Assembly: GCA_001543395.1 (NCBI GenBank)
Contig: LPNG01000001.1
Span: 87,760 to 151,759 of the forward strand
Direction: 5' to 3'
Source of the DNA: Candidatus Alcium sp. F082
GTDB taxonomy: Bacteria; Bacteroidota; Bacteroidia; Bacteroidales; F082
Length of the DNA stretch: 64,000 bases
Shown here: piece after piece, positions 3,750 through 18,112 of the stretch
Position numbering within the stretch: position 1 is the first letter of the stretch
Layout of the letters: each line of letters begins with the position of its first letter
Translations under genes and position numbers: made by a program
Notes under the pieces: model-generated
Told to the model about the DNA's origin: nothing
The model's input: the letters and a program-made list of their open reading frames with translations, nothing else
Database searches by the model: none

Positions 3750-5477
3750 TCACTTTTCACCCAGCTCCAATAGCTTTTCCTTGGCTTCTTTTGAGCCAAA
3801 CGATGCAGCTTTCCTAATTTTAGCAAGGGCTTTCTTTTTGTTAGGCTTCACGCCTTTCCCTTCGAGATAGAAAAGACCTGTTTTGTATTGTGCGTCGATT
3901 TCACCTCGACTGGCAAGTTGGGCATACCACTTATAGGCTTCTTTATTGTCCTGCGTTACAACCACACCCTGTTCATACAATTCAGCGAGTTGTCTCATCG
4001 CATAAAGATCCCCAAATTGCGCTGCCTTCTTATACCATTTAATGGCTTGTTGATAGTTTTGACCGATTCCATCTCCGAAGAAATAGCCATCTGCAATATC
4101 GCGCAATTCAGCACCTGTTTCAGGGAGGGTCAAAAGGATGCGTCCAGCCTTCTCATACCATCGGGCTGCTATCACGTCGCTTTGCTTCACCCCCTTGCCT
4201 TCATGATAACGCAACCCCAGTCTTTTGCATGCACGCCATGCGTCTTTAGGTATCATACGCCAAAGATCTTTATCGGTTTGCCGAGCCGATTTCCGATACC
4301 ACTTCACCGCTTCTTGATCGTTTTGCGCCACGCCCTCTCCTTTAGTGTAAAACTCACCCAGCATATACTGCGACAGGGCACGGCCTTGCTCTGCCGATTT
4401 CCTATACCACTTGAATGCTTCCTCTTTGTTTTGTTCAACTTTAACACCTTGGTAATACAACTCACCCAACTTGAATTGCGATTCCTCATGGCCTTGTTCA
4501 GCCGCCTTGGTAAACCATTTGACGGCTGTGTCATGATTCTTTCTAACACATTGGCCATCAAGATAGAAGAACCCAAGGCAATGCTGGGCAACAGGATCAC
4601 CTTGCTCTGCATATTTCTTGAACAACCTGAAAGCCTCCTTGGTGGTCCACCACTTTCCGTCTTCGTATGTATAGGGATAACCTATCCTATCCAAGTCGGA
4701 TTTATCAAGATAATCGGTGGTTTCGATATAATGCATCCACCAGTAAAACGCCTCTTCTTTGTCTTGCTTGACACGGTCCCCACGATACAGAAAACCAGAA
4801 AGCAAATATTGAGCCTCCGAATCACCGCCTTGAGCGGCTTTTCTGTACCATTTGATTCCCTCTTGATCATCCAAATCCCCTATCCCGACACCGACAATAG
4901 TGTCGTTGATATAGGTCTCGGCAATCTTGCATTGGGCCCACGCATCACCGTGATCAGCCAGGTTACGTAGGTATCTCAACATGGTTTCACCGTCACCATC
5001 GGGGCAACCGTTTTCTTCAATATGAAGCCATATCGTATCCGCCACATACCTTTGTGCTTCCAGGTCTCCTTGATCGGCCAACGCCCACATTTTCCTATAT
5101 TCCTCCGTGTCTTGGGGGCCAAATCCCGCACCCACCACAATCCAATCATCCAAATCGGTCCCTACAATACCAATGCCTTTGCCTGAATCGATGTCTGCAA
5201 GACTTTCAAGACGAAGCTTGGCCTCTTCGCTTAGTTTTTCTCCAGCTTTGGCTACGGCCTCAAAGCATTTTGCTGCTTCTACAAGGTCTTTCTCAACACC
5301 CTTCCCCTCATAATACAGAAGAGCCAAATAGTAGAGTGCCGTTGTATAACCCAATTCGGCCGCCTCTTTGTAGCATTTGGCAGCAGATTCATATTTCCTG
5401 CGGCAATGAAAAAGCCATCCTTGTTTGTACAGTTCTTCCGCCTTTGTTTTTTGATTGTTTGTGTTGTTTGATTTCAT
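3750..5477 (-). CDS. Sel1-like (SLR/TPR-family) repeat protein, 575 aa
   Basis: Many tandem ~36-aa units of the type A..WY.KAAEQG...AQY.LG..Y..G.GV.QD...A.KWY. No signal peptide seen. Confidence 0.85.
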   Translation of the reverse strand: MKSNNTNNQKTKAEELYKQGWLFHCRRKYESAAKCYKEAAELGYTTALYYLALLYYEGKGVEKDLVEAAKCFEAVAKAGEKLSEEAKLRLESLADIDSGKGIGIVGTDLDDWIVVGAGFGPQDTEEYRKMWALADQGDLEAQRYVADTIWLHIEENGCPDGDGETMLRYLRNLADHGDAWAQCKIAETYINDTIVGVGIGDLDDQEGIKWYRKAAQGGDSEAQYLLSGFLYRGDRVKQDKEEAFYWWMHYIETTDYLDKSDLDRIGYPYTYEDGKWWTTKEAFRLFKKYAEQGDPVAQHCLGFFYLDGQCVRKNHDTAVKWFTKAAEQGHEESQFKLGELYYQGVKVEQNKEEAFKWYRKSAEQGRALSQYMLGEFYTKGEGVAQNDQEAVKWYRKSARQTDKDLWRMIPKDAWRACKRLGLRYHEGKGVKQSDVIAARWYEKAGRILLTLPETGAELRDIADGYFFGDGIGQNYQQAIKWYKKAAQFGDLYAMRQLAELYEQGVVVTQDNKEAYKWYAQLASRGEIDAQYKTGLFYLEGKGVKPNKKKALAKIRKAASFGSKEAKEKLLELGEK

Positions 5478-5503
5478 AATTGATAGTTTGTTTTATTGTT
5501 TTA

Positions 5504-6307
5504 TTAAAAAAGTTCGTCTTGATTCGATAACAGCGTTGATAGATTGGCAAAAAAGCCATCTTCATCCATCTGTTCCTCACCATTTCTTAACCTTTCGGCT
5601 TCCTCTTGCCATCCTGCTTTTTCGGCCCACTCCAAGGCTTTTGCACGGTTTTTCTTTGTGCCACATCCAATTTTATAGCACCCAGAAAGGGAACACATCG
5701 CCTCTTCGTGCCTCAATTCCGCAGCTCTTTTAAACCACACGAAAGCTCTTTTCCGGTAATGCCTAACACCCCAGCTATAAGAATCATAGATGGTACCAAG
5801 CATATACATTGCCTCGACGTTGCCTTGAACAGCCGCCTTTTTGAGCCAAAGTGCCGCCTCATGTTTGCGACTTCTCCATCCCATTTTTAGACAGTCGAAT
5901 TCGCTATATTGCCATCCAAGCTTGTATTGCATCTCAGCATAACCGTAGTCAGCTATTATCGTCAAGTACTCCAATGCCTTGTCAATATCCGCTTCCACGC
6001 CGATGCCATAATAGTATGCGTAATACATCCAATAAATGGCGTCTTGGTTGCCTTCTTCGCAAGCAGGCTGCAACACATTGTTGATAACAGTCTTCAATTG
6101 ATGCTTCTTCTTTCTCGTCAAAGGACGACATTGCTGATGGTAACGTTGTATGTTTTGGAGTATTTCCTCCTCCGTTTTTGGCAAGCAGTCAGACAAGCAT
6201 TGAATAGCCTCCTCAAGTGGGGTATGAGGCTCAGCATCTTCTGCATAAGGAAAATAGGTGAGGGTAAAATTGCCTTCGGGAGTAATGTTGGGATTTGTTG
6301 TTTTCAT
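5504..6307 (-). CDS. Sel1-like repeat protein, 267 aa
   Basis: The C-terminal half carries Sel1-type units (ALWLKKAAVQGNVEAMYMLGTIY; AFVWFKRAAELRHEEAMCSLSGCY; ALEWAEKAG). 26 nt upstream of the larger Sel1 gene. Confidence 0.8.
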   Translation of the reverse strand: MKTTNPNITPEGNFTLTYFPYAEDAEPHTPLEEAIQCLSDCLPKTEEEILQNIQRYHQQCRPLTRKKKHQLKTVINNVLQPACEEGNQDAIYWMYYAYYYGIGVEADIDKALEYLTIIADYGYAEMQYKLGWQYSEFDCLKMGWRSRKHEAALWLKKAAVQGNVEAMYMLGTIYDSYSWGVRHYRKRAFVWFKRAAELRHEEAMCSLSGCYKIGCGTKKNRAKALEWAEKAGWQEEAERLRNGEEQMDEDGFFANLSTLLSNQDELF

Positions 6308-6348
6308 ACTAATAACAGCAAAAATAGGTGTTTTTATGATAGTGAAGC

Positions 6349-6364
6349 TGGTACTTTTCAGTAC
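6349..6364 (-). promoter_or_regulatory. 16-nt motif TGGTACTTTTCAGTAC (inverted repeat GTACT-N4-AGTAC), copy 1
   Basis: Identical 16-mer also at 16184..16199. This copy lies about 42 nt upstream of the Sel1 gene ATG (6307) and just downstream of the 44-aa ORF. Confidence 0.35.
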
Positions 6365-6382
6365 ATATAATTACTGTCATGA

Positions 6383-6517
6383 TTAAAAAAACAAAGACAT
6401 GACCAAGCTAATAACAGCGATTACACCAAACACGATAGCAGCAATAACAAAGCACCCAGGCCCATCACTGCCACCCCCATCGAAATCACCTGTTTTTGGA
6501 TTATATTCCCAACCCAT
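6383..6517 (-). CDS. Small membrane peptide, 44 aa (MGWEYNPKTGDFDGGGSDGPGCFVIAAIVFGVIAVISLVMSLFF)
   Basis: Not in the track (<60 aa). The ATG is 12 nt after the E1 stop. The N-terminus carries the YNPKTGDF motif shared with two upstream small proteins, followed by a Gly-rich linker and one C-terminal hydrophobic helix. Confidence 0.4.
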   Translation of the reverse strand: MGWEYNPKTGDFDGGGSDGPGCFVIAAIVFGVIAVISLVMSLFF

Positions 6518-6529
6518 AAGTGTAAGTAT

Positions 6530-7741
6530 TTAAAATGATTGTAATAGTTCCTCAAATTCATCTCCTGTATCCAGCAGAATCTCATCCTTTGAACAAACAG
6601 CGCAATCATCTCGTCTACTGATATTGGCCCCGTACCAACGCATGATTGTAGGCATTGGGCCTGCTCCTGGCAAGATGTGCCAATTGGAGAATTTGCGTTC
6701 TCGTCTGTTTGCCCATAGATAGTAATTGTAAACAAGTTCATCTTCCAAACACGAAATGCCAGAAGCCTCACCTCTCGACAGCTCCACTAAGGCCAACTTA
6801 ATCATCATGTTACAGATAGGCTCAATATCAGCCGAAAGACCCACTTGAACCATCGCGTCAGCATCCTGGGCTGAAACGTATGCGGGAATTATGCCGGTCT
6901 GGCGAGCCGAGACCTCGTCAGTAATCTCTTCATGGACAACTCCAATATTTCCCACCAAACAGCTGTAGCAGGCCTGACCTGGATGATAGATAAATACATC
7001 ACCACCTTCGGCTCGAGTAAAAGCCCTTCCAAAGATACCAACTTTCTGGAAATCGACCAAAGCCTGCGACAAGGCAAAGCGGCTCGGGTTGTTGTCGGTG
7101 GCACAAATCACTAAATCAGCACAACACACAATTTCTTCAAGTCTTTGGTTGTTTTTGCTGATATCCAAGGGGTATTTGTGGATTTTTGTGTAAGGGTTTT
7201 TACCGAGAATAGATTCTTCGATGGCATCTGTTTTCAGCCTTCCCAAATCTTTGATGAAACAAGTGTGGCGGGCAAGATTATGAAGTTCTACCCGATCAAA
7301 ATCCACCAAAGAAAACTCTCCCACTCCAGCTTTTGCCAACTCAATGGCAATCTGTGACCCGAAACTGCCTAAACCAATAACGGCTACATGCTTTTTTTCC
7401 AAGATTCCGACTTCCAAAATACCTTTACTTCTGGAATACAAATTCTCCTTCGATGGTATCATTTGGGAATCCACCCGTTGAAGCTCATTATCAGTCTTAA
7501 CGAACACCTGTGGGCCGTCACCTCCGACAAAAACACACCAAAGAACATCATTCAAAAATGATACAATTGGGGCGGCCTTTGAGAAAAAGCACTTTGAAAC
7601 CCTACCGAAGGCATGTGCCAAAGGCTGAGTATGGAGATGCACCACGTCCTCTCCTTCCCATTCGTAAGCATAGCCACATTGAGATTCTGCTTCACCACTG
7701 GCAAAAGCATCCAACTCCTCTTGTGAAAGATAGACAATCAT
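6530..7741 (-). CDS. ThiF/MoeB/HesA-family E1-like adenylyltransferase with ~115-aa N-terminal extension
   Basis: VAVIGLGSFGSQIAIELAKAGVGEFSLVDFDRVELHNLARH (Rossmann/ATP motif plus the NLxRH/Q signature). Two CxxC pairs (CYSC, CAVC), as in Zn-binding E1-like enzymes. Confidence 0.85.
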   Translation of the reverse strand: MIVYLSQEELDAFASGEAESQCGYAYEWEGEDVVHLHTQPLAHAFGRVSKCFFSKAAPIVSFLNDVLWCVFVGGDGPQVFVKTDNELQRVDSQMIPSKENLYSRSKGILEVGILEKKHVAVIGLGSFGSQIAIELAKAGVGEFSLVDFDRVELHNLARHTCFIKDLGRLKTDAIEESILGKNPYTKIHKYPLDISKNNQRLEEIVCCADLVICATDNNPSRFALSQALVDFQKVGIFGRAFTRAEGGDVFIYHPGQACYSCLVGNIGVVHEEITDEVSARQTGIIPAYVSAQDADAMVQVGLSADIEPICNMMIKLALVELSRGEASGISCLEDELVYNYYLWANRRERKFSNWHILPGAGPMPTIMRWYGANISRRDDCAVCSKDEILLDTGDEFEELLQSF

Positions 7742-7914
7742 GCGAATCCATCCTTGGTCATGTCGGTTACAACCTCACCAGCGCTATGGGTGATACCCAT
7801 TGGGGCTTCCTCAAACTCACCCGTGTTGGGATTGAATACTAAATCCGTGATGGTGTTTCCGTTCTGCGTGTCTTTTACGACTTTGGCGATTTTGTTTGCT
7901 TTCTCTTCGTTCAT
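7738..7914 (-). CDS. Small protein, 58 aa (MNEEKANKIAKVVKDTQNGNTITDLVFNPNTGEFEEAPMGITHSAGEVVTDMTKDGFA), translationally coupled to E1
   Basis: Not in the track (<60 aa); translated by hand. Its TGA (7738-7740) overlaps the E1 ATG (7739-7741) as ATGA. Carries the FNPNTGEF motif. Confidence 0.45.
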   Translation of the reverse strand: MNEEKANKIAKVVKDTQNGNTITDLVFNPNTGEFEEAPMGITHSAGEVVTDMTKDGFA

Positions 7915-7926
7915 ATAAATTCGTAT

Positions 7927-8268
7927 TTAAGGTTCGTCAAATCTTTTATCGAATAACTCTTCTATCTGTTCACTTGTTAGCTGTATTCCGTCGGCTTCAC
8001 ATTCTTGAATGGTTTCTTCCATCATTTTACGATACCTATCCACAACGTGTCTTGCAGTATCAGCTATCAAATCTGATAATTCCTTCGGAGGTGCTATATA
8101 TGAAGCAAGTAGAAAACTCGGCACCTCACCTTCTTCATAATTGTTGGGATCTTCATACTCATCTGTTTCACAATTATAAATCAATTCGAGCTCACTTTTG
8201 GACTTGCAATTCTCGAAATCACCGGTCCTTTCATTATAGGCCAAATCGAACCAATCATTGTCTTCCAT
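7927..8268 (-). CDS. Acidic hypothetical protein, 113 aa
   Basis: Track ORF, strongly D/E-rich. The N-terminal DLAYNERTGDFEN matches the motif of the 58-aa and 44-aa ORFs. Sits between E2 and the 58-aa ORF with 12-17-nt gaps. Confidence 0.55.
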   Translation of the reverse strand: MEDNDWFDLAYNERTGDFENCKSKSELELIYNCETDEYEDPNNYEEGEVPSFLLASYIAPPKELSDLIADTARHVVDRYRKMMEETIQECEADGIQLTSEQIEELFDKRFDEP

Positions 8269-8285
8269 AGTATCACGCTTTTAGA

Positions 8286-8714
8286 TTAGCTTTGATGTTT
8301 CAAATAATAACCGATAGGCGCGCCGGTGCTCAAATGTGCCTCATACATTTCAAGCCACAGACGGCACTTGATATAAACTTTATATAGGGAAACCCTATTG
8401 GTCCATGAGGAAGTCCCATAATGGCAAATCTGGGTACACCCGTTTTCGCTATTTAATGTATGCATAGAAGAACTCGGGGTGTCGAGTGGGTTGAGATTAC
8501 AATCATATAACATTTTGGTTACAAACACCTTGGGAATATTATCGGGAAACACATCCAATTCAATTTTCAAGGTATAAATATTCCCTCTATTGGTACGGGC
8601 TGCCATTACCAAATAAGGCTTTGCCGTATTCATATCCATGAAACGATAAATGTTTGAAGGTAGTTTCTCCTCCAACACTTTAATTTCAGCTTGATATCTG
8701 CTGTATTTCATCAT
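8286..8714 (-). CDS. UBC-like (E2-like) protein, 142 aa
   Basis: The start ATGATGA overlaps the JAB stop. YTLKIELDVFPDNIPKVFV resembles the E2 hP..hP flap, followed by HTLNSENGCTQICHYG, which resembles the E2 HPN...G.IC active-site region (Cys93/Cys97). Fold assignment is by pattern only. Confidence 0.6.
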   Translation of the reverse strand: MMKYSRYQAEIKVLEEKLPSNIYRFMDMNTAKPYLVMAARTNRGNIYTLKIELDVFPDNIPKVFVTKMLYDCNLNPLDTPSSSMHTLNSENGCTQICHYGTSSWTNRVSLYKVYIKCRLWLEMYEAHLSTGAPIGYYLKHQS

Positions 8715-9616
8715 AATCTATGTAGTTTATAGTATTCAATAAATGATTGTTCGGTTTCTCCTTCAATAGGTTGCCAGCCCAATCCAGATGCACATAAGCC
8801 TTCTGTTTCATAGGTAATCAGAGGAGAACGTTCGGGGAATCCCATTGGGAACAGAATATCAGTTGTTATCGCTTCTTCTTCGTTTTTTACAAGGATATGA
8901 ACAAGGCGGTTTTCATCAAGCGAAACATTGCAATCCATATCATCATGCTGTTCTTGAACAAAATCAAGCATCGTTTTTAGCACCTTGTTATTGCTCTTGT
9001 CGTTCATCCAATAACCTTTGGGGTATTGTTGTTTCACTCCTTGAACGACCATGGATTTGTATTTCATCCCGACCAGCACAGGGGTTTTGGTGTAAGGATG
9101 CCTCAATATCCGTTTCAAACGCCTGTCTATCACTTTTCTGAAAGGGCTTTCCATAGGCAACACTTCCCATTGTGATTCTTGGTAACAAGAAGTGCTTTCA
9201 ACGAAATTAAAGGCATTGATGGTTGATGTCGTGTTGGTGCAGTTACCAATACAAAGCAAGAACCAACGCAAATTATGGCGAAGCATGTTGTCATATATAG
9301 TATGGGCATCGTGGCCACTGGGATAAGCCAAACCCAGCTGATGATGGGAATGCCATTCGCCGATATGTTGCAGTCCAAATTCATGAACGAGGATTTCGCC
9401 CACTGTTTCAAGATAGTCAAGGTCTTGGTTGAAGAAAGTGGGCTGATGGTTGGCGTTGTCGCCAGGGCCAATGGCGTACAACACCACGGGAACACCTGCC
9501 GAAGTCCAATAGCCAAACAGTTGTCCGCCCGTCTCGATATGCGGATAGTCAAGGATGCAGCGCGAAAGATAATCCAATTCGCTTTGATAGACCAGAACAG
9601 TGTCGGCGGGTTTCAT
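8711..9616 (-). CDS. JAB/MPN (JAMM) metallopeptidase with ~150-aa C-terminal extension
   Basis: HIETGGQLFGYW (Glu) and EWHSHHQLGLAYPSGHD (H-x-H-x(7-8)-S-x-x-D JAMM motif). The track start at 9646 is TTG; the ATG at 9616 (MKPADTVLVY...) is preferred. Confidence 0.8.
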   Translation of the reverse strand: MKPADTVLVYQSELDYLSRCILDYPHIETGGQLFGYWTSAGVPVVLYAIGPGDNANHQPTFFNQDLDYLETVGEILVHEFGLQHIGEWHSHHQLGLAYPSGHDAHTIYDNMLRHNLRWFLLCIGNCTNTTSTINAFNFVESTSCYQESQWEVLPMESPFRKVIDRRLKRILRHPYTKTPVLVGMKYKSMVVQGVKQQYPKGYWMNDKSNNKVLKTMLDFVQEQHDDMDCNVSLDENRLVHILVKNEEEAITTDILFPMGFPERSPLITYETEGLCASGLGWQPIEGETEQSFIEYYKLHRL

Positions 9617-9629
9617 GGCATGTATGATT

Positions 9630-9953
9630 TTATCTTTGGTGAGCAATAATGATTTGTCTCATTTCGATGGCTTCCGATTTCAGGAAGCCGTGGATGGAAA
9701 CAAGGTTCCCGAACGCGAAGAACGATATGGTGGAAAAGCCCACAATGGGCGTTTCGATATGCACCAACGAGATACAGTTGTAAGGTATGTAAGTCGATTT
9801 TCCGCTGAAAATGAAAGGGCAACGCACCGTCACGCCGTTGTCATCGAAAATGATGGTCGGCGGGAACAAGGCGTTGCCTTGGGAAATTCGGGATGCGGTG
9901 TAAGTACGGAGCATGATATTCTGGTACTTTTCTTCGAGGTCACCATCTTGCAT
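9630..9953 (-). CDS. Hypothetical 107-aa beta-rich protein (possibly bacterial PH-like)
   Basis: Track ORF. The ATG at 9953 is 1 nt after the Zn-ribbon stop. Alternating hydrophobic strands (TIIFDDNGVTVRCPFIF...ISLVHIETPIVGFSTISFFAFGNLVSIHGF) end in a helix. No GG terminus. Confidence 0.5.
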   Translation of the reverse strand: MQDGDLEEKYQNIMLRTYTASRISQGNALFPPTIIFDDNGVTVRCPFIFSGKSTYIPYNCISLVHIETPIVGFSTISFFAFGNLVSIHGFLKSEAIEMRQIIIAHQR

Positions 9954-9954
9954 T

Positions 9955-10179
9955 CTAAATTAAAATCCATTCATGCGACCCTCCTTTTGAACAATCGGTG
10001 AATTTGGGGCGACCACTACTATGAACTATAATCCCGCATTTATCACAACAATAGGTATCATCGCCCACTTCTGAATTATATTGCCAATCATGTTCCCCTC
10101 CGTTAGGGCATGAAGATTTAGGCGGCATTCCATTAGTTTTTGTAATCGAACTACATTTTGGACAATCAAAGTTTTGCAT
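9955..10179 (-). CDS. Tandem zinc-ribbon protein, 74 aa
   Basis: Two copies of C-x2-C-x(13-14)-C-x-x-G-G-x-H-x-W: CPKC...CPNGGEHDW and CDKC...CSKGGSHEW, giving eight potential Zn ligands. Confidence 0.6.
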   Translation of the reverse strand: MQNFDCPKCSSITKTNGMPPKSSCPNGGEHDWQYNSEVGDDTYCCDKCGIIVHSSGRPKFTDCSKGGSHEWILI

Positions 10180-10224
10180 GGTTCTTTAACCCTAAATTCG
10201 TCATCGGGTGCAACTTCTTATTTC

Positions 10225-10254
10225 TGCCTACTCGTGAGCTTTTCGGCTTCCGCT
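10225..10254 (-). promoter_or_regulatory. Conserved leader motif, copy 1: minus-sense AGCGGAAGCCGAAAAG-N5-GAGTAGGCA
   Basis: Lies in the only long spacer of the operon (10180..10345), 45 nt upstream of the Zn-ribbon ATG. Both half-motifs recur at 15845..15877. Confidence 0.4.
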
Positions 10255-10345
10255 TAAAATTATCCAATCATTACCCCTAAAGATGCTTGGTTTATCCTTT
10301 CCAAAAACAGTACACTTTTTGGGGGTAGTATAATCTTATTTTGAA

Positions 10346-11680
10346 TTATTCTCCTCGTTCAATGGTATCGACTATAACACCAACACACGTTGCCATTGAA
10401 GGATTACAAATACCATCATCACCATTTAAAACGATGTGTTCGTCGGGATAACCTATTCGAACATCCATGCCTGTTTTGAACTCAACAAGTTGCTTTAGGT
10501 GTTTCATCATGGCTCCACCACCAGTTAGGACAATCCCGGCATACAATTGTTCTTCCAACCCCGTTTTAGTTATTTCACTATAAATAAGGTCAATAATTTC
10601 TTCTTCTCGACTTTGGATAATATGGGACAAGTTTTTGAATGATATTTCTCGAGGTCCCAATTTGCCAACGCCCGGTATGGAAACAACTTCATCTTCACTG
10701 TTTTCACTGGCTAAAGCAGAGCCAAAATTTACTTTCACTTCTTCGGCATAACGTTTGATTATTTTGCAGGAGGCACAAATATCCTTTGTAATAATACATC
10801 CGCCAAGAGGAACAGCAGCAACATGTTTGACTTTTTTGTCTTTATAGACAACTATGTCTGTTGTATTTCCACCAATATTAACGAGAACGACACCAACTTC
10901 CATTTCATTTTTATCAAGTACTGAATTGGCTGATGCTATGGGGTCTGGAATAATGAAATCTATCTTCACACCAGCACTCTGGAGGGGTTTCATGATGTTT
11001 TTGGCAGCAGAGGTTTGCCCAATGATGACATGGAAGTTGGCTTCGATTTTGTTACCTAACATGCCAACGGGGTTAGTGGCGAGCTCGCCATCGACATAGG
11101 TGTCTTGACGGATGACGTAAATGATTTCCTCACCAGGTGTCATGTTGATTTTAAAAGTATCGTTGCGCAAACGCTCCAGTTCCGCTTCCGAAATCTCAGT
11201 GTCATGGTGGTCACGCATCAACACGCCTCGATGTCGTATAGACTTAATCCGTTTATTAGAAAAACCGACACTTACATGGGTTATTTCTACTCCAGCTTCT
11301 TGCGAAGCTTGTTTTATAGCTGATTTGACCGCTTCGACAGAATAGCCGACTTCTTGTTCTTCTTCATTTAATGCAATTTGACTGCTCCCTATAACGACAA
11401 TCTTACCATTAGCATTTTTATATCCGATTACACATACAACTTTTGTGGCACCAATATCCAACCCGACAACGACACTTTTATTATCTTGCTTTTTTGCTTC
11501 TTCACCCAAGTTTTCTTCTTCATTTGAAGAATCTCCAAACTTTTCATTATTAGCAGATTCAACATCTATTTTTTTATCGCTATATTGTGTTGGCATTTCA
11601 TCAACACTTCCTGAATTATTTGAAGAATCTCCAAATAATTCGTTATAAGCAGCATCAAAGTCTATATTGATCGTACCCAT
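10346..11680 (-). CDS. FtsA-like actin-fold ATPase paralog with acidic repeat-containing N-terminal extension
   Basis: VVVGLDIGATKVVCVIG (phosphate-1), VLVNIGGNTTDIVVY (phosphate-2) and GIVLTGGGAMMKHL (adenosine motif), collinear with FtsA including the SHS2-type insert. The first ~70 aa carry a duplicated NE[LK]FGDSSN. It ends right after the core, without a C-terminal amphipathic helix. Confidence 0.8.
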   Translation of the reverse strand: MGTINIDFDAAYNELFGDSSNNSGSVDEMPTQYSDKKIDVESANNEKFGDSSNEEENLGEEAKKQDNKSVVVGLDIGATKVVCVIGYKNANGKIVVIGSSQIALNEEEQEVGYSVEAVKSAIKQASQEAGVEITHVSVGFSNKRIKSIRHRGVLMRDHHDTEISEAELERLRNDTFKINMTPGEEIIYVIRQDTYVDGELATNPVGMLGNKIEANFHVIIGQTSAAKNIMKPLQSAGVKIDFIIPDPIASANSVLDKNEMEVGVVLVNIGGNTTDIVVYKDKKVKHVAAVPLGGCIITKDICASCKIIKRYAEEVKVNFGSALASENSEDEVVSIPGVGKLGPREISFKNLSHIIQSREEEIIDLIYSEITKTGLEEQLYAGIVLTGGGAMMKHLKQLVEFKTGMDVRIGYPDEHIVLNGDDGICNPSMATCVGVIVDTIERGE

Positions 11681-11691
11681 ATTACATCTTT

Positions 11692-12012
11692 TTAAAAATC
11701 CAAACCACCACTAAATGTCGCCCCTGAAGCCGTGGTGATGTTTACGTCTGTAGCACCAAGATTTCTTTTGATATATGGGATATCCGTGTCTTCTATATGC
11801 TTTATAAGACTATGGATATAGTCTTTGTCACGAGAATAATTATCGCTTGAATACTTTTGATAAACCTCGTTCGACAATCCATCAATGTGCAATTCCTCTA
11901 CTCGCTTTTTATATCTTTCCATTGTGTCAATTAATTCTTCTTGGAATCCTTCCAAAAAATGTTGCAATTTCTGTAATGCTTCTAATTGTTTTTTTAATGA
12001 TTGCGTTGACAT
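11692..12012 (-). CDS. 106-aa helical-hairpin protein (WXG100-like architecture) with flexible ...SGGLDF C-terminal tail
   Basis: Two predicted long helices are joined by a HIDGLS turn (in place of W-x-G). The tail is GATDVNITTASGATFSGGLDF. It sits between the coiled-coil and FtsA-like genes with 11-12-nt gaps. Confidence 0.5.
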   Translation of the reverse strand: MSTQSLKKQLEALQKLQHFLEGFQEELIDTMERYKKRVEELHIDGLSNEVYQKYSSDNYSRDKDYIHSLIKHIEDTDIPYIKRNLGATDVNITTASGATFSGGLDF

Positions 12013-12024
12013 GTTGTTATGATT

Positions 12025-13089
12025 TTAGTGGGTGAATAAATGTTTTAGTTTGGCAAAAAAACTTCCATGTTTCATTTCATAGATAGTCTTGTCTCTATCT
12101 TTGAGTTGATCTTTTAACCGCGCTATCTCATCTTTCAATTCTTTAACGGCTTGCGACACTTTGGCTTTGAATGTTTCAAATTCTTTACTATAAGTATCGT
12201 TATTGTCAGCTAATTCTTGAATGTGGCGTCCTTGCAACTGCTCCATCTGCGTATGATAATGTTCTTCTTTGTCTGACAACTCCTTGTGGTGTTGCTCTTG
12301 CAACTGCGCAATTTGTTTGCTATGGTTTTCATTAACCAGCGCTATTCTATTTTCGTGTTCTTTCTTAAGCGACTGAAAATCAACAAGTGGAACCTCATCG
12401 GCATATTTCTTGGTCATCTCACTTATCTTGTCGTTCAATTCCTTGATTTTCCCGTTATACTCATTTACAATCTTTTTCCTCTCCGATTCAGCAGTCTTCA
12501 TTAAAGCTTCATGTTTGTCCGCTGCGCTTTCCACCTCTGCTTTATGCTCTGCTCTCTCTCTTGCAATCTGATCACGCAACCCACTAACTTCCTGCATGTG
12601 TTGTTCAACAAGTGTCTTTTCCCTGTCTTCAGCGGCACTCCTAAAGGCATCCATTGCTTCTTTGGCATTTTCAGCAACCTCTTTCATCTCTGATTTCAGG
12701 TCGGATTTTTCCTTTTTTGCCTTGTCTTGCAGCATTTTTATTTTTTCCTCATACTGTTTTTCGCTGCTTTCTTTCTCCATCTTTAGCGCTTCTATTTCTG
12801 TTTCAAATCGCGCAACGAGTTGTTTTTCCTTACTATTTGCAGAAACTATATAGGTTTCCATTTCTTCTTTGGCTTTGGCGCCAGCAGAAGCCATTTCCGC
12901 TTTTAAGTCCATCTTATCCTTTTGGGCTTGCTTGCGAAGCTTCTCAATCTCCAACTTATGTTTGTCTTTCAACTCTGCCAATTGATTCTCATAAGAATCT
13001 CTAATGGCATTTTCTTTTTCAAGAATTTCATTCTTGGTTTCATCATCAACATGATGGAGATAATTAAGATAAAAATTATAGTCTGCCAT
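12025..13089 (-). CDS. Lys/Glu-rich coiled-coil protein, 354 aa, with internal duplication
   Basis: Heptad-rich K/E/Q sequence throughout. LRKQAQKDKMDLKAEMASAGAKAKEEME... is repeated as LQDKAKKEKSDLKSEMKEVAENAKEAMD.... The start is 5 nt after the ATPase stop. Confidence 0.75.
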   Translation of the reverse strand: MADYNFYLNYLHHVDDETKNEILEKENAIRDSYENQLAELKDKHKLEIEKLRKQAQKDKMDLKAEMASAGAKAKEEMETYIVSANSKEKQLVARFETEIEALKMEKESSEKQYEEKIKMLQDKAKKEKSDLKSEMKEVAENAKEAMDAFRSAAEDREKTLVEQHMQEVSGLRDQIARERAEHKAEVESAADKHEALMKTAESERKKIVNEYNGKIKELNDKISEMTKKYADEVPLVDFQSLKKEHENRIALVNENHSKQIAQLQEQHHKELSDKEEHYHTQMEQLQGRHIQELADNNDTYSKEFETFKAKVSQAVKELKDEIARLKDQLKDRDKTIYEMKHGSFFAKLKHLFTH

Positions 13090-13094
13090 AGCCT

Positions 13095-15602
13095 TTATAA
13101 TTTGTATATTTTAATTTTTTCGATTTCCTCTTCCATTTCAGCAGAACGCAGATTGGCTGTGTAACTATTCCTTACTGTCGATTTGTCGGCACCGCCAAAA
13201 ACCTTGTATCCTTCACCACCTTTCAACTCTATGCCGATTCTCCACTCAAAAATGAAGTCTCTACTATCAAATATCCGTTCATAATGTTGCCAAGTATCCA
13301 CGTATGCAATGACATGAATGCCATATTCTGGACCATCGCTCACAATTTCAGTCAGTTTAGAACAAACAGATGTAGTCCTATCACCACGAAGGATTCTCAC
13401 TGGACGGAAATTGTATAGGTTATGAAAAGCCAACACCAATCTTGCATATTTTCCTTTTTGAGTCTTTCTTTTGTTTAACTCTACACATATCTGTTCAATA
13501 CGTTTTTCTATTTCCTCATCATCTGTTTCGACTCTCAAATTAGAATACTTTTTCTGCAATTCTCTATACTTTCCATATAAACCGCTTTCTTCGTTTGTTT
13601 TGTCGCAAACAATAAACCGGCCTTCTTCTGAGGTCTGTTTGACTATTTGCTCCAATGAATGGAAAATGACAGAAGTGGCTGCTTCTTGATCTTGGCCTAT
13701 CATAAGCACATTGTAGCCATTCTCTCTTTGTAGTGAATAATATATATGAGAATCACTCAGGGAGAAAGGCGTTCCAATATATACTTTAATCTTACCATCT
13801 GTTGGTATAAGATTCTGTATAGCAAGATTTGTGCTTATTTCAACAGGTGTTTCCCCATCAAATATATAGCGACTAAAGTCCTCGTTAATATTACTTTCGT
13901 ATTTTAATCGCAATTTTGAGACCATCTCCTTTATCCTTGTCTCATTCAAATAAGCAACTTGATAAATTACATTGTCCTTATAATTACCACCTGGGCAATA
14001 CACAGACTCGCCTTTTTTTGTGAGTGAACGCGGTGCATAATTATTGGGACCAAGAATCTTCGTACATTCATTTTCGGAATTGAGTCTCATTGAAATCCTC
14101 AAACCAAACTCATCCAATGAATGACCGATACTGAGGTCTCCCAAACCCTGCGTGGATAGAATCATGTTGATTCCAAAAGACCGTCCTCTTTTCCCAATAT
14201 CAGATATTCTGCCAGCGAAATACTCCGCTGCGCGATAGCTGCTATCAAACAGTTTTTGGAACTCGTCAATAATAATAACGTATCGAGGTAGTTTTTCTAA
14301 AGCATTCTTATTGTATTCCAACAAATTGGTTGCTCCAAGAGGTTTGTATAATTCTCCTCTACGAGTAATTTCATCATCAAGGTATTTGAAGACATTTTTT
14401 GCAAATTCCAACTCACTTTTTATCGAAAGCACCTTTACATGCGGCAAATCCTTGTAAACATTAAACTCCGTACCTTCCTTGAAATCAAGCAACAAAAACT
14501 GGACTTCTTGAGGAGAATAAAGCCATGCGGTATTACAAATGATGTTATGCAACAATACGGTTTTTCCCGAACCCGTGGAGCCGCCAATCAAACAATGATG
14601 ATATGATTGCCCTCGGCCATCTTCTACACTTAGAACAAAATTTTGAATATCAGTCGCGTTCACCTTTCCAATAGGAACTTCTATTCCATAACTTGCATCA
14701 GAAGTCCACATGTTCTTTCCTGTAAATTTATCGGCAAGGCTGACAGCAACATTTTGCGCCCTTTGGAGATTCTTGTTGATATAATCTTGTATTTCCTCCG
14801 TTTGAGTAGCATCGGGGAATGCAGTATCTAAGTGCAATGCAAACCGTCGAAGCATTTCATCATTAAGGAGGTTCTTGACATAGAATCTTTGGCCTTTTTC
14901 GTAAATCACCGTCATACTATCGAGCAAAGGCATTGGGTTGTACTCGTATTCTTTCCCAACAGTAAAGGAGGTATCAAAACTGATAATTGTAAAAAATCCT
15001 GCCTTTCTACCTGTCTTCACTATTTGCTTTAGCAACTCCCCGGTTTCCTTATCAATTGAATAAGGCACGTCTGTAAGAACGATAATATGATATGGCTTTG
15101 CCAGTTCTCCTGCATTTCCATTATAATCCACAAGCGTCTTATCGGCATATCTAGCACCTAAGATCTTTTGAATAACCATCGGGATGTTATTCTTCACTTT
15201 CAACAACTCTGATTTCAAATCATAAGTATCGGTCAAAATTCGTTCACCAATAATCTTGGAATTCAAATAAGAAAGGTTGATCAGATTGCCTCCTTGTCCC
15301 TTTGCATCGAACAATGTGAATTTGCACAAACCCGGAGGAATTGACAAAGCCAACCGAAGAGCCATCATTTGGATGGTGTTCTTTACGGTTTTTTCATTTT
15401 CTGGCGTAGTCAAAAAGCAAACACCGTTGGTCTGGTCAAGAGGAATCAATGCGGGAATTCTGTTACCTGTCACAGATTCATATTCGCCAATATAAATGCC
15501 TTCCTTGGGAAAAACATCAAAATCCTGCTCAACCAATTCAAAGTCCCTAGAATTGGCCGAGGTCTTGTGAGTTGTTTTATAGTAATCTTCGACGGTAATC
15601 AT
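13095..15602 (-). CDS. Soluble multi-domain FtsK/SpoIIIE-family (EssC/EccC-like) P-loop ATPase, 835 aa
   Basis: The central domain has Walker A CLIGGSTGSGKT and Walker B RYVIIIDEFQ, plus LSTQ. The flanking N- and C-terminal regions look like degenerate copies (FLTTPENEKT...KFTLFDAKG...YHIIVLTDVP; VLMIGQDQEAAT...ARLVLAFHNL). No TM or FHA region. Confidence 0.85.
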   Translation of the reverse strand: MITVEDYYKTTHKTSANSRDFELVEQDFDVFPKEGIYIGEYESVTGNRIPALIPLDQTNGVCFLTTPENEKTVKNTIQMMALRLALSIPPGLCKFTLFDAKGQGGNLINLSYLNSKIIGERILTDTYDLKSELLKVKNNIPMVIQKILGARYADKTLVDYNGNAGELAKPYHIIVLTDVPYSIDKETGELLKQIVKTGRKAGFFTIISFDTSFTVGKEYEYNPMPLLDSMTVIYEKGQRFYVKNLLNDEMLRRFALHLDTAFPDATQTEEIQDYINKNLQRAQNVAVSLADKFTGKNMWTSDASYGIEVPIGKVNATDIQNFVLSVEDGRGQSYHHCLIGGSTGSGKTVLLHNIICNTAWLYSPQEVQFLLLDFKEGTEFNVYKDLPHVKVLSIKSELEFAKNVFKYLDDEITRRGELYKPLGATNLLEYNKNALEKLPRYVIIIDEFQKLFDSSYRAAEYFAGRISDIGKRGRSFGINMILSTQGLGDLSIGHSLDEFGLRISMRLNSENECTKILGPNNYAPRSLTKKGESVYCPGGNYKDNVIYQVAYLNETRIKEMVSKLRLKYESNINEDFSRYIFDGETPVEISTNLAIQNLIPTDGKIKVYIGTPFSLSDSHIYYSLQRENGYNVLMIGQDQEAATSVIFHSLEQIVKQTSEEGRFIVCDKTNEESGLYGKYRELQKKYSNLRVETDDEEIEKRIEQICVELNKRKTQKGKYARLVLAFHNLYNFRPVRILRGDRTTSVCSKLTEIVSDGPEYGIHVIAYVDTWQHYERIFDSRDFIFEWRIGIELKGGEGYKVFGGADKSTVRNSYTANLRSAEMEEEIEKIKIYKL

Positions 15603-15605
15603 TGC

Positions 15606-15821
15606 TTATGGCAAGGTTTTGAGAAACTCTTGGTACATTTCCATGGCACTGCTAAAATTCTGTCTTTCATCCTTCAACAAATCCCTACCGTCAAAAATAT
15701 AACCGACATAAGTTGGATATTGGTCTGCGGAATTTTGGGTCAGTTTTTTATTTTGTACTTTTTCTTTATCTAACCAATCTTTAAACTCATCTCTTTTGTA
15801 ATAATTTGCTTTTCGGCTCAT
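15606..15821 (-). CDS. Hypothetical 71-aa protein, first gene of the operon
   Basis: Track ORF. Its stop is 3 nt before the ATPase ATG. Charged, probably helical; no recognisable motif. Confidence 0.5.
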   Translation of the reverse strand: MSRKANYYKRDEFKDWLDKEKVQNKKLTQNSADQYPTYVGYIFDGRDLLKDERQNFSSAMEMYQEFLKTLP

Positions 15822-15844
15822 AGTATTTACTTGTCTTTAATTAT

Positions 15845-15877
15845 TGCCTACTCTCTCCCAACTTTTCGGCTTCCGCT
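15845..15877 (-). promoter_or_regulatory. Conserved leader motif, copy 2: minus-sense AGCGGAAGCCGAAAAG-N8-GAGTAGGCA
   Basis: 23 nt upstream of the ATG of the first operon gene (15821). Same 16-mer and 9-mer as at 10225..10254. Confidence 0.4.
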
Positions 15878-16076
15878 GTCTTGGAGTAGAGGCAACAAAA
15901 AAAAAGCCCGCACCCCAATCCTATCATGAAGTGAAGGCTCTCGCATGCCCGAAGTAAAGATAAGGAAAGCAGTGCGTGCTTTATGGGCACACAACGCTCA
16001 CACTTCTGCCTTACTTCGTTCAAATTTGCGAGATTCTCACTTTCAGACAGGTGGTATCGCTACCGATTATATGCCG

Positions 16077-16084
16077 CAAATATA
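16077..16084 (-). promoter_or_regulatory. Candidate Bacteroidota -7 box TATATTTG (TAnnTTTG) for the FtsK/E1-E2-JAB operon
   Basis: Minus-sense ...ATTGTTGCAAAAGCGAAAAATATT-TATATTTG, with a TTG-containing -33-like element about 20 nt upstream. It would give a ~250-nt leader. Confidence 0.35.
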
Positions 16085-16183
16085 AATATTTTTCGCTTTT
16101 GCAACAATTTTTGCACATTTTTCCGGCAAACCACCAGCACTGCTATCCGAGGGCAAAAGTAGAGGTTTTAATAAAACCAGATG

Positions 16184-16199
16184 TGGTACTTTTCAGTAC
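16184..16199 (-). promoter_or_regulatory. 16-nt motif TGGTACTTTTCAGTAC, copy 2
   Basis: Identical to 6349..6364. Lies between the kinase stop (16250) and the candidate operon promoter. Confidence 0.35.
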
Positions 16200-16249
16200 T
16201 TATTATAGAGAAGGAACGGATGGAAAAACTCACTTGTCCACAGCTATTA

Positions 16250-18112
16250 CTACAAAGTGGAAAGATTCAGAAACTGTGGTTCGCCTCCGTTTTTAATGAT
16301 GGCAACTCCTTCCGAAACAATGATGGACTCGCTCTTGGGTACGACAACCCTGCCATTGATGTCGATAATGGTATAAAACCCGTCTTTGGTCTTTGCAAGA
16401 ATCATGGCAAAGCCCTCCAAATATGTCGTCCGAGCATAAGTACCCGGCTCAATGCTCATCTTCCCCCCTCCATTAACCACACCAAAATCATTTTCATATC
16501 GACCAAGCAAAAAGGCACCATCTTCAGCTTTTTTTCCATAAGGATAGTTCAGATTGGTGACATGCTCCATACGAACATTGACAACACCATACCCTTCGTC
16601 AGTCTCAGCAAGGGCAAGGTCATTACTATTGAAATCTAAGCGGTGCTTGAATATCGGTTTCTCCAACTCCTTGCCATCCATTCCTATATAACCATACCGT
16701 CCAAGCTTTTTCACAGGTATTATTCCCTTTTTGCTGAATGCTAATTCCACATCATTATACTCAGCTTCAGCAGGTAGAGGATTTAGGTAAATCACATAAT
16801 CTAGAGTCCGTCCACGTCTTCTTCCGATATAAAAATGATAGTCCTCTGCCAGTGTAAGTATTTCTCTGTAATTAAACAAATATTGCCGCCCATTTGGCGC
16901 GACCAATCCATACTTCCCATCCAGGCAACAAACAGCATACCCGTCTTTAAACGCTTTGGCATCTTGATAGATGGCTGGGATAACCTCCTTCCCATTTCTG
17001 TCAACATACCCATATAGGCCATTCGTTTCATCCAAAAAAAACAATGGCGATGCAGTTTTGCTTTCCAACTCAGCACGTTGATACTGTTCAAGATAACTTT
17101 GTGCAAGGGAATCTTGGTCTAAGTCTGTCGGGACATCGGAATCTACGGGAATTTGTACATGGACAATATCCAACTTTGGCTTGATCGGAATTTCCACCTT
17201 AATAGTATCATGCCTCTCTTCAACAATAAAAACCGTGTCGGTCACTATTTCAGATTGTGTCTGGATTTCATCGTCAGTAACAAGTTGTTTGTCTGCTTTT
17301 TCGTTTATGGTTTTGTTGGTGAGAAACCACACCAATAACGGCACAACGAACACCAAGAGCGACACCCATCGTGAAAGAAAATCCCTAAAACGAAGGGCTT
17401 TTCGCACCTCATTGATGTTTTTATGCCGTTTTGAGGCTTTTTTCCGCTGGCATTTGCGCACAACCCCTCCATAGCGGTGTGGAAACAACGCCTTGATGAC
17501 AAAACCCAAGGAAAAGATGTCGCTCGTGACATCCGTCTGCTCGCGGTTCGCCAACTCGGGCGCGGCATAGGCTTCCGTGCCTCCTGTGGCCTTGTCGCAG
17601 TTGGAATCGCTGTCGGCATAGCCGAAATCTATCAGCTTGACATTGTGTCCGTTGCGAGTTATAAGGATATTCGCAGGCTTCAAGTCGTTGTGAACCACCT
17701 GATGGCTATGAACGAAGGCCATGGCATCCAGCAACTCGCCAAGAATGCGTTTCTTTTCTTTATGGGAAGGCGATGTCTTCAAAAAATCCGACAAGGTCGC
17801 ACCATCGATATATTCCATGACGATGCACGGCCCCACTTCGGCATCCTCGCGCCAGCCAATGCAACGCACAACATGTTCGTTGCCATACAAACGCTCCAGC
17901 AGCCTATACTCGCGCTGCAACCTCGCGAGGTTCTCTGCCAATACACCCTGGTCCCGATTCAAGGCTTTGAGGAACAGCTTACGCTCTCCGCTGAGCACGG
18001 AGTACAAAACACTGTAGCCCGCACCATGATAAGGCAAGCGTCTATAGTCGTGAAACTGGGAATAGCTGGCAACCATCTCCCCAAACGATCCCGAAGTGAA
18101 ACAATCTTCCAT
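16250..18112 (-). CDS. Ser/Thr protein kinase with one TM segment and C-terminal WG-containing (KWG-type) repeats
   Basis: Kinase subdomains HNDLKPANILI, DFGYA and AYAAPE; TM segment WVSLLVFVVPLLVWFL; then repeated units of the type GLYGYVDRNGKEVIPAIYQDAKAFKDGYA / GKYGLVAPNGRQ / GRYGYIGMDGKELEKPIF. Confidence 0.85.
   Translation of the reverse strand: MEDCFTSGSFGEMVASYSQFHDYRRLPYHGAGYSVLYSVLSGERKLFLKALNRDQGVLAENLARLQREYRLLERLYGNEHVVRCIGWREDAEVGPCIVMEYIDGATLSDFLKTSPSHKEKKRILGELLDAMAFVHSHQVVHNDLKPANILITRNGHNVKLIDFGYADSDSNCDKATGGTEAYAAPELANREQTDVTSDIFSLGFVIKALFPHRYGGVVRKCQRKKASKRHKNINEVRKALRFRDFLSRWVSLLVFVVPLLVWFLTNKTINEKADKQLVTDDEIQTQSEIVTDTVFIVEERHDTIKVEIPIKPKLDIVHVQIPVDSDVPTDLDQDSLAQSYLEQYQRAELESKTASPLFFLDETNGLYGYVDRNGKEVIPAIYQDAKAFKDGYAVCCLDGKYGLVAPNGRQYLFNYREILTLAEDYHFYIGRRRGRTLDYVIYLNPLPAEAEYNDVELAFSKKGIIPVKKLGRYGYIGMDGKELEKPIFKHRLDFNSNDLALAETDEGYGVVNVRMEHVTNLNYPYGKKAEDGAFLLGRYENDFGVVNGGGKMSIEPGTYARTTYLEGFAMILAKTKDGFYTIIDINGRVVVPKSESIIVSEGVAIIKNGGEPQFLNLSTL

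Follow-up and report, generated by a model that had tools for sequence, protein, structure and literature searches.

Two copies of a bipartite repeat, both on the minus strand of a 64,000-nucleotide (nt) window of Candidatus Alcium sp. F082 (GenBank assembly GCA_001543395.1, contig LPNG01000001.1, positions 87,760 to 151,759), are almost certainly DUF805b RNAs (Rfam family RF02914), each with a short hairpin whose loop can pair with the 3′ tail of the element. Copy 2 heads a gene module encoding an FtsK-like ATPase, and copy 1 heads a module encoding the E1, E2 and JAB proteins of a ubiquitin-like conjugation system. From the fold, the spacing and the genes that follow the family in other genomes, we propose that DUF805b is a portable leader, working in cis, that would affect the initiation of translation by way of general host machinery. 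For this statement as a whole, including its mechanism, we estimate a probability of roughly 55%.

Two DUF805b RNAs and their fold

Each copy consists of the 16-mer AGCGGAAGCCGAAAAG (10254..10239 and 15877..15862) followed by the 9-mer GAGTAGGCA (10233..10225 and 15853..15845), separated by 5 nt in copy 1 and 8 nt in copy 2. The next ATG lies 45 nt from copy 1 (ATG 10179) and 23 nt from copy 2 (ATG 15821), and a TAA shares the first base of copy 1. A first-pass annotation, made from the letters of the window alone, had reported these positions, the strand, the spacers and the distances to ATG, and we reproduced all of them. It had also placed the element in front of both modules and argued that conservation is at the nucleotide level. 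Both statements held, the latter in the form of a hairpin and pseudoknot with compensatory changes. The exact 16-mer occurs twice in the window, where 0.65 occurrences would be expected even with three mismatches allowed; this repeat is not due to chance. The 9-mer alone is unremarkable at one mismatch (11 matches against 9.4 expected), and the full bipartite pattern was found at these two sites only in the 2.37-Mb assembly, which is 72% complete. Looser matches to the 16-mer at 5591, 28698, 53987 and 61696 fall within coding sequence, have no 9-mer tail and were missed by both covariance models, and we regard them as chance. Two of these near-copies, at 5591-5606 and 28698-28713 on the minus strand, carry two mismatches each, and one of them is inside a Sel1-repeat gene.

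When the window was scanned against the Rfam covariance models, the sole match above threshold was RF02914 (DUF805b RNA; gathering score 35.6 bits) at copy 2, positions 15845-15879 on the minus strand, with 35.9 bits and an E value of 5.7e-9. At permissive thresholds copy 1 (10225-10256) aligned to the same family from end to end, with 34.3 bits and an E value of 1.9e-8. Our own model R1, built from 84 copies in relatives, scored copy 2 at 42.7 bits and copy 1 at 40.4 bits. The two RNAs and the elements that separate them from their start codons are the following, all on the minus strand.

15845..15879, minus strand: DUF805b copy 2; stem P1 pairs 15878-15875 with 15862-15859, loop GGAAGCCGAAAA at 15874-15863, pseudoknot GCC 15870-15868 with GGC 15848-15846
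10225..10256, minus strand: DUF805b copy 1; stem P1 pairs 10254-10252 with 10239-10237, pseudoknot GCC 10247-10245 with GGC 10228-10226, short 3-nt linker
15822..15844, minus strand: 23-nt linker, rich in A and U, from copy 2 to the start codon
10189..10214, minus strand: second box ('element 2'), found with copy 1 only; a GUUG-CACC-CGAU hairpin followed by UAGGGU, which stands 10 nt upstream of the ATG

The RF02914 consensus, AAGGcGGAAgCCGAAAAgCCUuAAaAGAGUAGGcA, has 35 positions, with a 4-bp stem closing a 12-nt loop. Both copies share with it the hairpin, the loop GGAAGCCGAAAA and the tail AGAGUAGGC. Each has the hairpin of three or four pairs around a 12-nt loop GGAAgCCGAAAA, and each has the 3′ tail (A)GAGUAGGc, in which GGC is able to pair with GCC of the loop. 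The stem has four pairs in copy 2 (C-G, A-U, G-U and C-G) and three in copy 1 (A-U, G-C and C-G); in copy 2 all four P1 pairs and all three pseudoknot pairs can form. Both are 5′ leaders in the sense orientation, which in the family stand about 20 nt before the start; copy 1, at 45 nt with its extra box, resembles 18 two-part leaders. In position, in orientation before a start codon and in host clade (Bacteroidales) the copies agree with the family, and we found no essential difference from it, although neither of the genes behind them is a DUF805 gene. They are ordinary representatives, in a new genome, of a family already known.

RF02914 is of Rfam type Cis-reg and belongs to clan CL00115, which it shares with DUF805 (RF03081). 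For DUF805 itself, with 68 positions, a search of the whole genome gave nothing at E up to 0.01, and in cmscan a lower-scoring, overlapping match of the same clan was suppressed. RF02913, considered as a sister family, turned out to be pemK. The DUF805b family is reportedly a product of a comparative screen by Weinberg and colleagues in 2017. The motif is not mentioned in the main text of Weinberg et al. 2017 (PMC5737381).

To examine the fold in relatives, copies with their surroundings were collected from 60 genomes, a covariance model was built on the hairpin only, and 111 matches were aligned; pairing statistics were taken over 106 distinct copies. Both the stem and the pseudoknot covary; the first-pass annotation had proposed a search for covariation in orthologous leaders. 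Three of the four P1 pairs alternate among A-U, G-C, U-A and C-G, and the outermost pair is formed in about half of the copies. In the helix between loop GCC and tail GGC, 98.4% of cells are paired. Its outer pair (columns 12-43) is G-C in 67 copies, U-A in 14, C-G in 6 and G-U in 4, with a covariation score of 0.486 that falls to 0.004-0.113 when the partner is slid by 1-3 columns. Because this helix was absent from the collecting model, its covariation is not a product of fitting. G-U pairs are twice as frequent as A-C, and DUF805b is always in the sense orientation of the next gene. The covarying stem and GCC/GGC pseudoknot indicate a folded sense-strand RNA rather than a DNA operator: DUF805b is an H-type pseudoknot in sense-strand RNA, not a double-stranded DNA operator. 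The internal spacer, which forms the third loop, ranges from 2 to 13 nt across the family. The invariant tail AGUA is antiparallel to the invariant loop GAA and adjoins the pseudoknot helix, an arrangement in which we see the bulged-G (sarcin-ricin, loop E) consensus, presumably a frequent recognition surface.

Distribution, spacing and downstream genes

We found DUF805b in 49 of 61 relatives from the same genus and order, with 1-15 copies per genome that are often clustered on one strand, and in 42 of 150 high-quality genomes sampled across Bacteroidota, mostly from the same class. Some genomes that carry it hold only one or two copies. The motif was absent from some complete relatives and from all 14 control genomes, including Bacteroides thetaiotaomicron. 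The exact pattern was present in at least 118 IMG/VR viral contigs; this search pattern fixed GCC and GGC, and pairing in these contigs is thus built into the search. Across the 80 contigs listed with their DNA, our own model gave 85 matches, nearly all of them full motifs, with scores of 36-55 bits. The top-scoring copies (55.5 bits) were on large viral contigs of 55-107 kb from IMG/VR sample 3300045988 (L130, L134, L150, L154, L156, L190 and others). In contigs of this sample the first open reading frame (ORF) of at least 35 codons begins only 105-119 nt downstream of DUF805b, a gap that may reflect an ORF of fewer codons, the use of a different start codon or a different genetic code.

The distance to the start codon is narrowly set. 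In 67 of 88 simple leaders from bacterial relatives, 19-24 nt separate the last paired base from the ATG (24 nt for copy 2 when counted in this way), and in viral contigs 18-25 nt separate the end of the pseudoknot from the ATG. Family-wide, the linker is 53% A and 34% U (87% A+U). The second box occurs in 18 of 111 DUF805b leaders, in which the distance from pseudoknot to ATG is 39-49 nt, mostly 44. It was located by pattern scan, as the MAFFT alignment was too ragged at its 3′ end for a model. Its consensus is rGUUGYRCCCGAYAC, then 5-7 nt, then UAGGG. About 8-10 nt separate the GGG from the ATG, a distance like that of a Shine-Dalgarno sequence. Three variants on the 3′ strand preserve the hairpin pairing. 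Pairing between the loop and GGG is partly supported: judged by eye, the third pair is A-U, G-C or G-U in about ten copies and sets G opposite A in about eight. The second box matched no Rfam family at E up to 10, and the pattern scan did not find it in about 1.08 Mb of viral DNA. Inside related islands it also occurs without DUF805b (L073:2605, L073:3301 and L079:2601).

The genes behind the leader are diverse. Behind 104 bacterial copies we found 37 Pfam families, the largest being outer-membrane beta-barrels (12 and 10 members), and most of the proteins were unmatched; the products recognized were chiefly small beta-barrels of this kind and lipoproteins. Behind viral copies there were ParB-like proteins, DNA methyltransferases, regulators and small unknown proteins. 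No pathway or transported compound common to the downstream genes was apparent. Many copies are operon-internal, with 42 of 105 leaders lying behind a same-strand ORF without a -7 box. Where a -7 box is present, it can be as near as 7-8 nt upstream of the motif.

Proposed function and alternative explanations

Our proposal of a portable leader that works through general machinery draws on the set spacing from the start codon, the linker rich in A and U, the copies inside operons, the lack of relation among downstream genes, the patchy distribution at low copy number and the use by phages. Family membership, fold, fixed spacing and the wide, unrelated gene set are observations, from which we infer the step in translation and the partner. 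The proposal fits what is known of Bacteroidia, whose ribosomes do not rely on Shine-Dalgarno pairing and in which the structure of the leader and an A-rich context tune initiation (PMC7797042, PMC6847099, PMC9976891). The leader of about 35 nt folds as a hairpin of 3-4 bp with the GCC/GGC pseudoknot, followed by an A/U-rich, unstructured linker of about 21 nt; in copy 1 the second conserved box fills the gap between pseudoknot and start. The pseudoknot might dock on, or be sensed by, general machinery at the 5′ edge of the ribosome-binding region, or alternatively it might insulate this A/U-rich region from upstream RNA. In either case, modules moving between genomes and phages would be kept expressible in Bacteroidia. 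As an analogy, the leader of phage T4 gene 32 likewise places a compact pseudoknot before an A/U-rich single-stranded linker that holds the ribosome-binding region. However, the gene 32 pseudoknot nucleates the binding of one specific autoregulatory protein on one gene, whereas DUF805b heads hundreds of unrelated genes.

Several points weigh against the portable-leader proposal or the family assignment beneath it. Copy 1 scores 1.3 bits below the gathering score of RF02914, because its stem has only three pairs and its linker is short. Downstream proteins look exported in 72 of the 104 bacterial cases (about 70%, by a crude test), which hints at a regulon more specific than a generic leader would serve. 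With its end about 21 nt ahead of the start codon, the pseudoknot neither overlaps nor occludes that codon, and the effect on translation could be positive, negative or conditional. Fixed spacing would suit a bound repressor or a riboswitch too. Finally, a literature search found no paper on the function of DUF805 or DUF805b.

A more specific form of the proposal is that DUF805b, with or without the second box, is a self-contained module that recruits ribosomes or insulates the ribosome-binding region, replaces the Shine-Dalgarno interaction in Bacteroidia, and travels with gene modules and phage genes. We put this forward only tentatively, and on balance doubt it. If it were true, newly acquired genes would be translatable in any context, and the present locus would be a conflict island of modules, each with its own translation signal, behind a kinase gene and a 174-nt transcription-gating, rod-like leader RNA.

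The best-placed alternative, which we nevertheless consider unlikely, is that a trans-acting regulator, either an RNA-binding protein or a small RNA, binds the pseudoknot and governs a dispersed regulon in which both modules would be truly co-regulated. About 20 unpaired nucleotides are nearly invariant, including the bulged-G-like module, which would be typical of a surface recognized by protein; the start-codon spacing is fixed, as for a translational operator; and the bacterial gene set is enriched in exported and outer-membrane proteins. However, genomes carry 0-15 copies, some complete genomes have none, and the motif is common in phage contigs, where it stands ahead of DNA-handling genes. 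A dedicated regulator would need to be conserved across the class irrespective of whether its targets are present. Furthermore, no candidate regulator gene accompanies the motif in the islands that were compared.

A very small riboswitch, of the size of preQ1-I or guanidine-III, that senses a metabolite or ion and sets downstream translation is less probable still. DUF805b resembles small H-type pseudoknot riboswitches (preQ1-I, SAM-II and guanidine-III) in its length of about 35 nt, its pairing of loop to 3′ tail, its A-rich third loop and its place before a start codon. Its covarying helices, highly conserved joining nucleotides and Cis-reg type in Rfam also fit a riboswitch. DUF805b differs from these riboswitches in its incoherent downstream genes, which range over porin-like proteins, lipoproteins, ParB-like proteins, methyltransferases, regulators and a ubiquitin-like conjugation system and have no common pathway, and in a third loop that varies between 2 and 13 nt. 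It has no known ligand. Several copies stand in one operon, and no expression platform is visible: the start region does not pair with the motif, which leaves the ribosome-binding region unsequestered.

We give the same low credence to an element of RNA processing or stability, in which a polycistronic transcript would be cut nearby and the pseudoknot would then protect the 5′ end of the downstream messenger RNA. The many operon-internal copies, copy 1 among them, are in keeping with this, and the -7 boxes at 7-8 nt place some motifs near a transcript 5′ end. A protective 5′ structure, however, needs no start distance fixed within about 5 nt, and upstream of P1 there is no conserved cleavage motif and the flanks are unconserved.

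An element at the DNA level, whether a promoter or operator common to the modules or a recombination site for cassette exchange, is very improbable: the compensatory changes fit a pseudoknot, a fold not open to double-stranded DNA, internal spacing (5 and 8 nt here) varies by up to 11 nt in the family, unlike that of a -35/-10 pair with its fixed half-sites, and no Bacteroidetes -7 box lies in or beside copy 1. Copies do cluster in variable islands, and homology between islands runs through the leader and breaks just after it, where the first small ORF differs, but homologous recombination between leaders that are reused accounts for such breaks just as well. No cognate recombinase of the tyrosine type, for an integron attC-type or other site, is encoded nearby: the Phage_integrase domain is absent from the window's contig (C1), with all 12 matches on other contigs, in a search that did not extend to serine recombinases or transposases. 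A loading site for a NusG paralogue, suggested by the likeness of the motif's core GGCGGAAGCCG to the ops element of RfaH (GGCGGTAGCGTG), was also rejected, given the RNA-type compensatory changes, the pseudoknot among them, an unconserved first G and the AGCGG with which both copies begin.

Knowledge of what DUF805b does would bear on how translation starts in Bacteroidia and on the expressibility of mobile genes, and the motif is a possible compact expression part for gut Bacteroidales. This functional question belongs to the family as a whole, and the two copies described here add little to it.

The locus and related islands

On the minus strand the locus begins with a Ser/Thr kinase with WG repeats, followed by a 428-nt spacer, copy 2, a 71-amino-acid (aa) ORF, the FtsK-like ATPase and a coiled-coil protein. 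A 106-aa ORF and an FtsA/actin-like protein come next, and then copy 1 with the second box, the Zn-ribbon ORF and a 107-aa ORF. JAB, the E2-like protein, a 113-aa ORF, the ThiF-type E1 and Sel1-repeat proteins complete the order.

15897..16084, minus strand: region ahead of copy 2; a -7 box of Bacteroidetes type, TATATTTG, at 16084-16077, then a rod-like hairpin RNA of about 174 nt
15606..15821, minus strand: first ORF behind copy 2, 71 aa, with no Pfam or PADLOC match
13095-15602, minus strand: FtsK-like ATPase gene, next after the 71-aa ORF
9955..10179, minus strand: first ORF behind copy 1, 74 aa, Cys-rich and Zn-ribbon-like
8711-9646, minus strand: JAB, after the 107-aa ORF
8286-8714, minus strand: E2-like, after JAB
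6530-7741, minus strand: ThiF-type E1, after the 113-aa ORF

The rod-like RNA has a minimum free energy of -72.9 kcal/mol (z -5.6) and ends in a run of nine U (15905-15897), 18 nt before P1 of copy 2. Four other genomes of the genus carry it at 84-92% identity, a related island of a Bacteroidales metagenome-assembled genome (MAG; L042) also keeps it, and in every case it is found after the kinase gene and before the variable island's first DUF805b. It matched no Rfam family and may be either a leader that gates transcription or a small RNA gene at the island border. Because no promoter was seen between the U-run and copy 2, the FtsK module is probably reached by read-through of the U-run. Likewise, no -7 box was found in the 166-nt gap ahead of copy 1, so that this copy probably lies inside an operon and shares its transcript with the FtsK module. 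Scans for sigma-70 promoters and simple terminators gave nothing above the shuffled expectation.

We found that a mosaic island follows the conserved kinase gene at 3750-18112 of the window and in the related loci L042, L052 (G002:C48), L073 (G036:C11) and L079 (G030:C19). Across the four other genomes, as in L042, the kinase gene, the rod-like RNA and the first DUF805b are kept and the cargo varies. L042 is the closest related island, with an FtsK 81% identical to the one in the window; it carries the FtsK module, lacks JAB, E2 and E1, and keeps the leader and the FtsK gene with a different 59-aa ORF in place of the 71-aa ORF. In G002 (L052), JAB and E2-like genes that are 92% identical come directly after two leaders; this island has no FtsK module, and its E1 region lay beyond the fetched piece. 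In two other genomes, small secreted proteins occupy the same island position. The FtsK module and the JAB/E2 genes are thus separable modules of a mosaic island.

Pairing of FtsK with E1 recurs in other Bacteroidales families without DUF805b. In the MAGs L045 and L046 (Muribaculaceae and Bacteroides), an FtsK-like protein of 23-25% identity lies about 3-4.5 kb from a homologue of the ThiF-type E1 (30-32%). The covariance model found no DUF805b at these two loci or at L043, an FtsK locus of 41% identity. These distant loci indicate that the system does not need the motif and that the motif is not tied to the system.

The first-pass annotation had suggested that the repeat co-regulates the two modules through a shared operator, RNA-binding site or processing site. 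One part of this suggestion stands: a sense-oriented RNA fold lies ahead of both modules, which therefore share whatever the leader confers. An operator or signal particular to this locus found no support. The element is a catalogued motif that precedes about 100 unrelated genes in relatives and many phage genes, it is missing from the distant FtsK/E1 homologues, and related islands hold one module without the other. Both the covariation of the pseudoknot and the variable internal spacer speak against a double-stranded DNA operator. The annotation had also named two outcomes that would speak against its idea, a common genome-wide repeat and absence from orthologous loci. The motif is not a genome-wide repeat here and is present at the closest islands, L042 and G002, yet across the clade it is unrelated to the system. 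Because the leader is generic and the modules lie apart in related islands, the repeat cannot serve as evidence that the FtsK and E1-E2-JAB modules form one regulated system.

Two further details concern the small ORFs of these islands. The two-part leader of G002 aligns with copy 1 as far as the GGG and then diverges, and it heads a 46-aa membrane peptide. The 107-aa protein is also encoded in L042, where it lies between Sel1-repeat genes.

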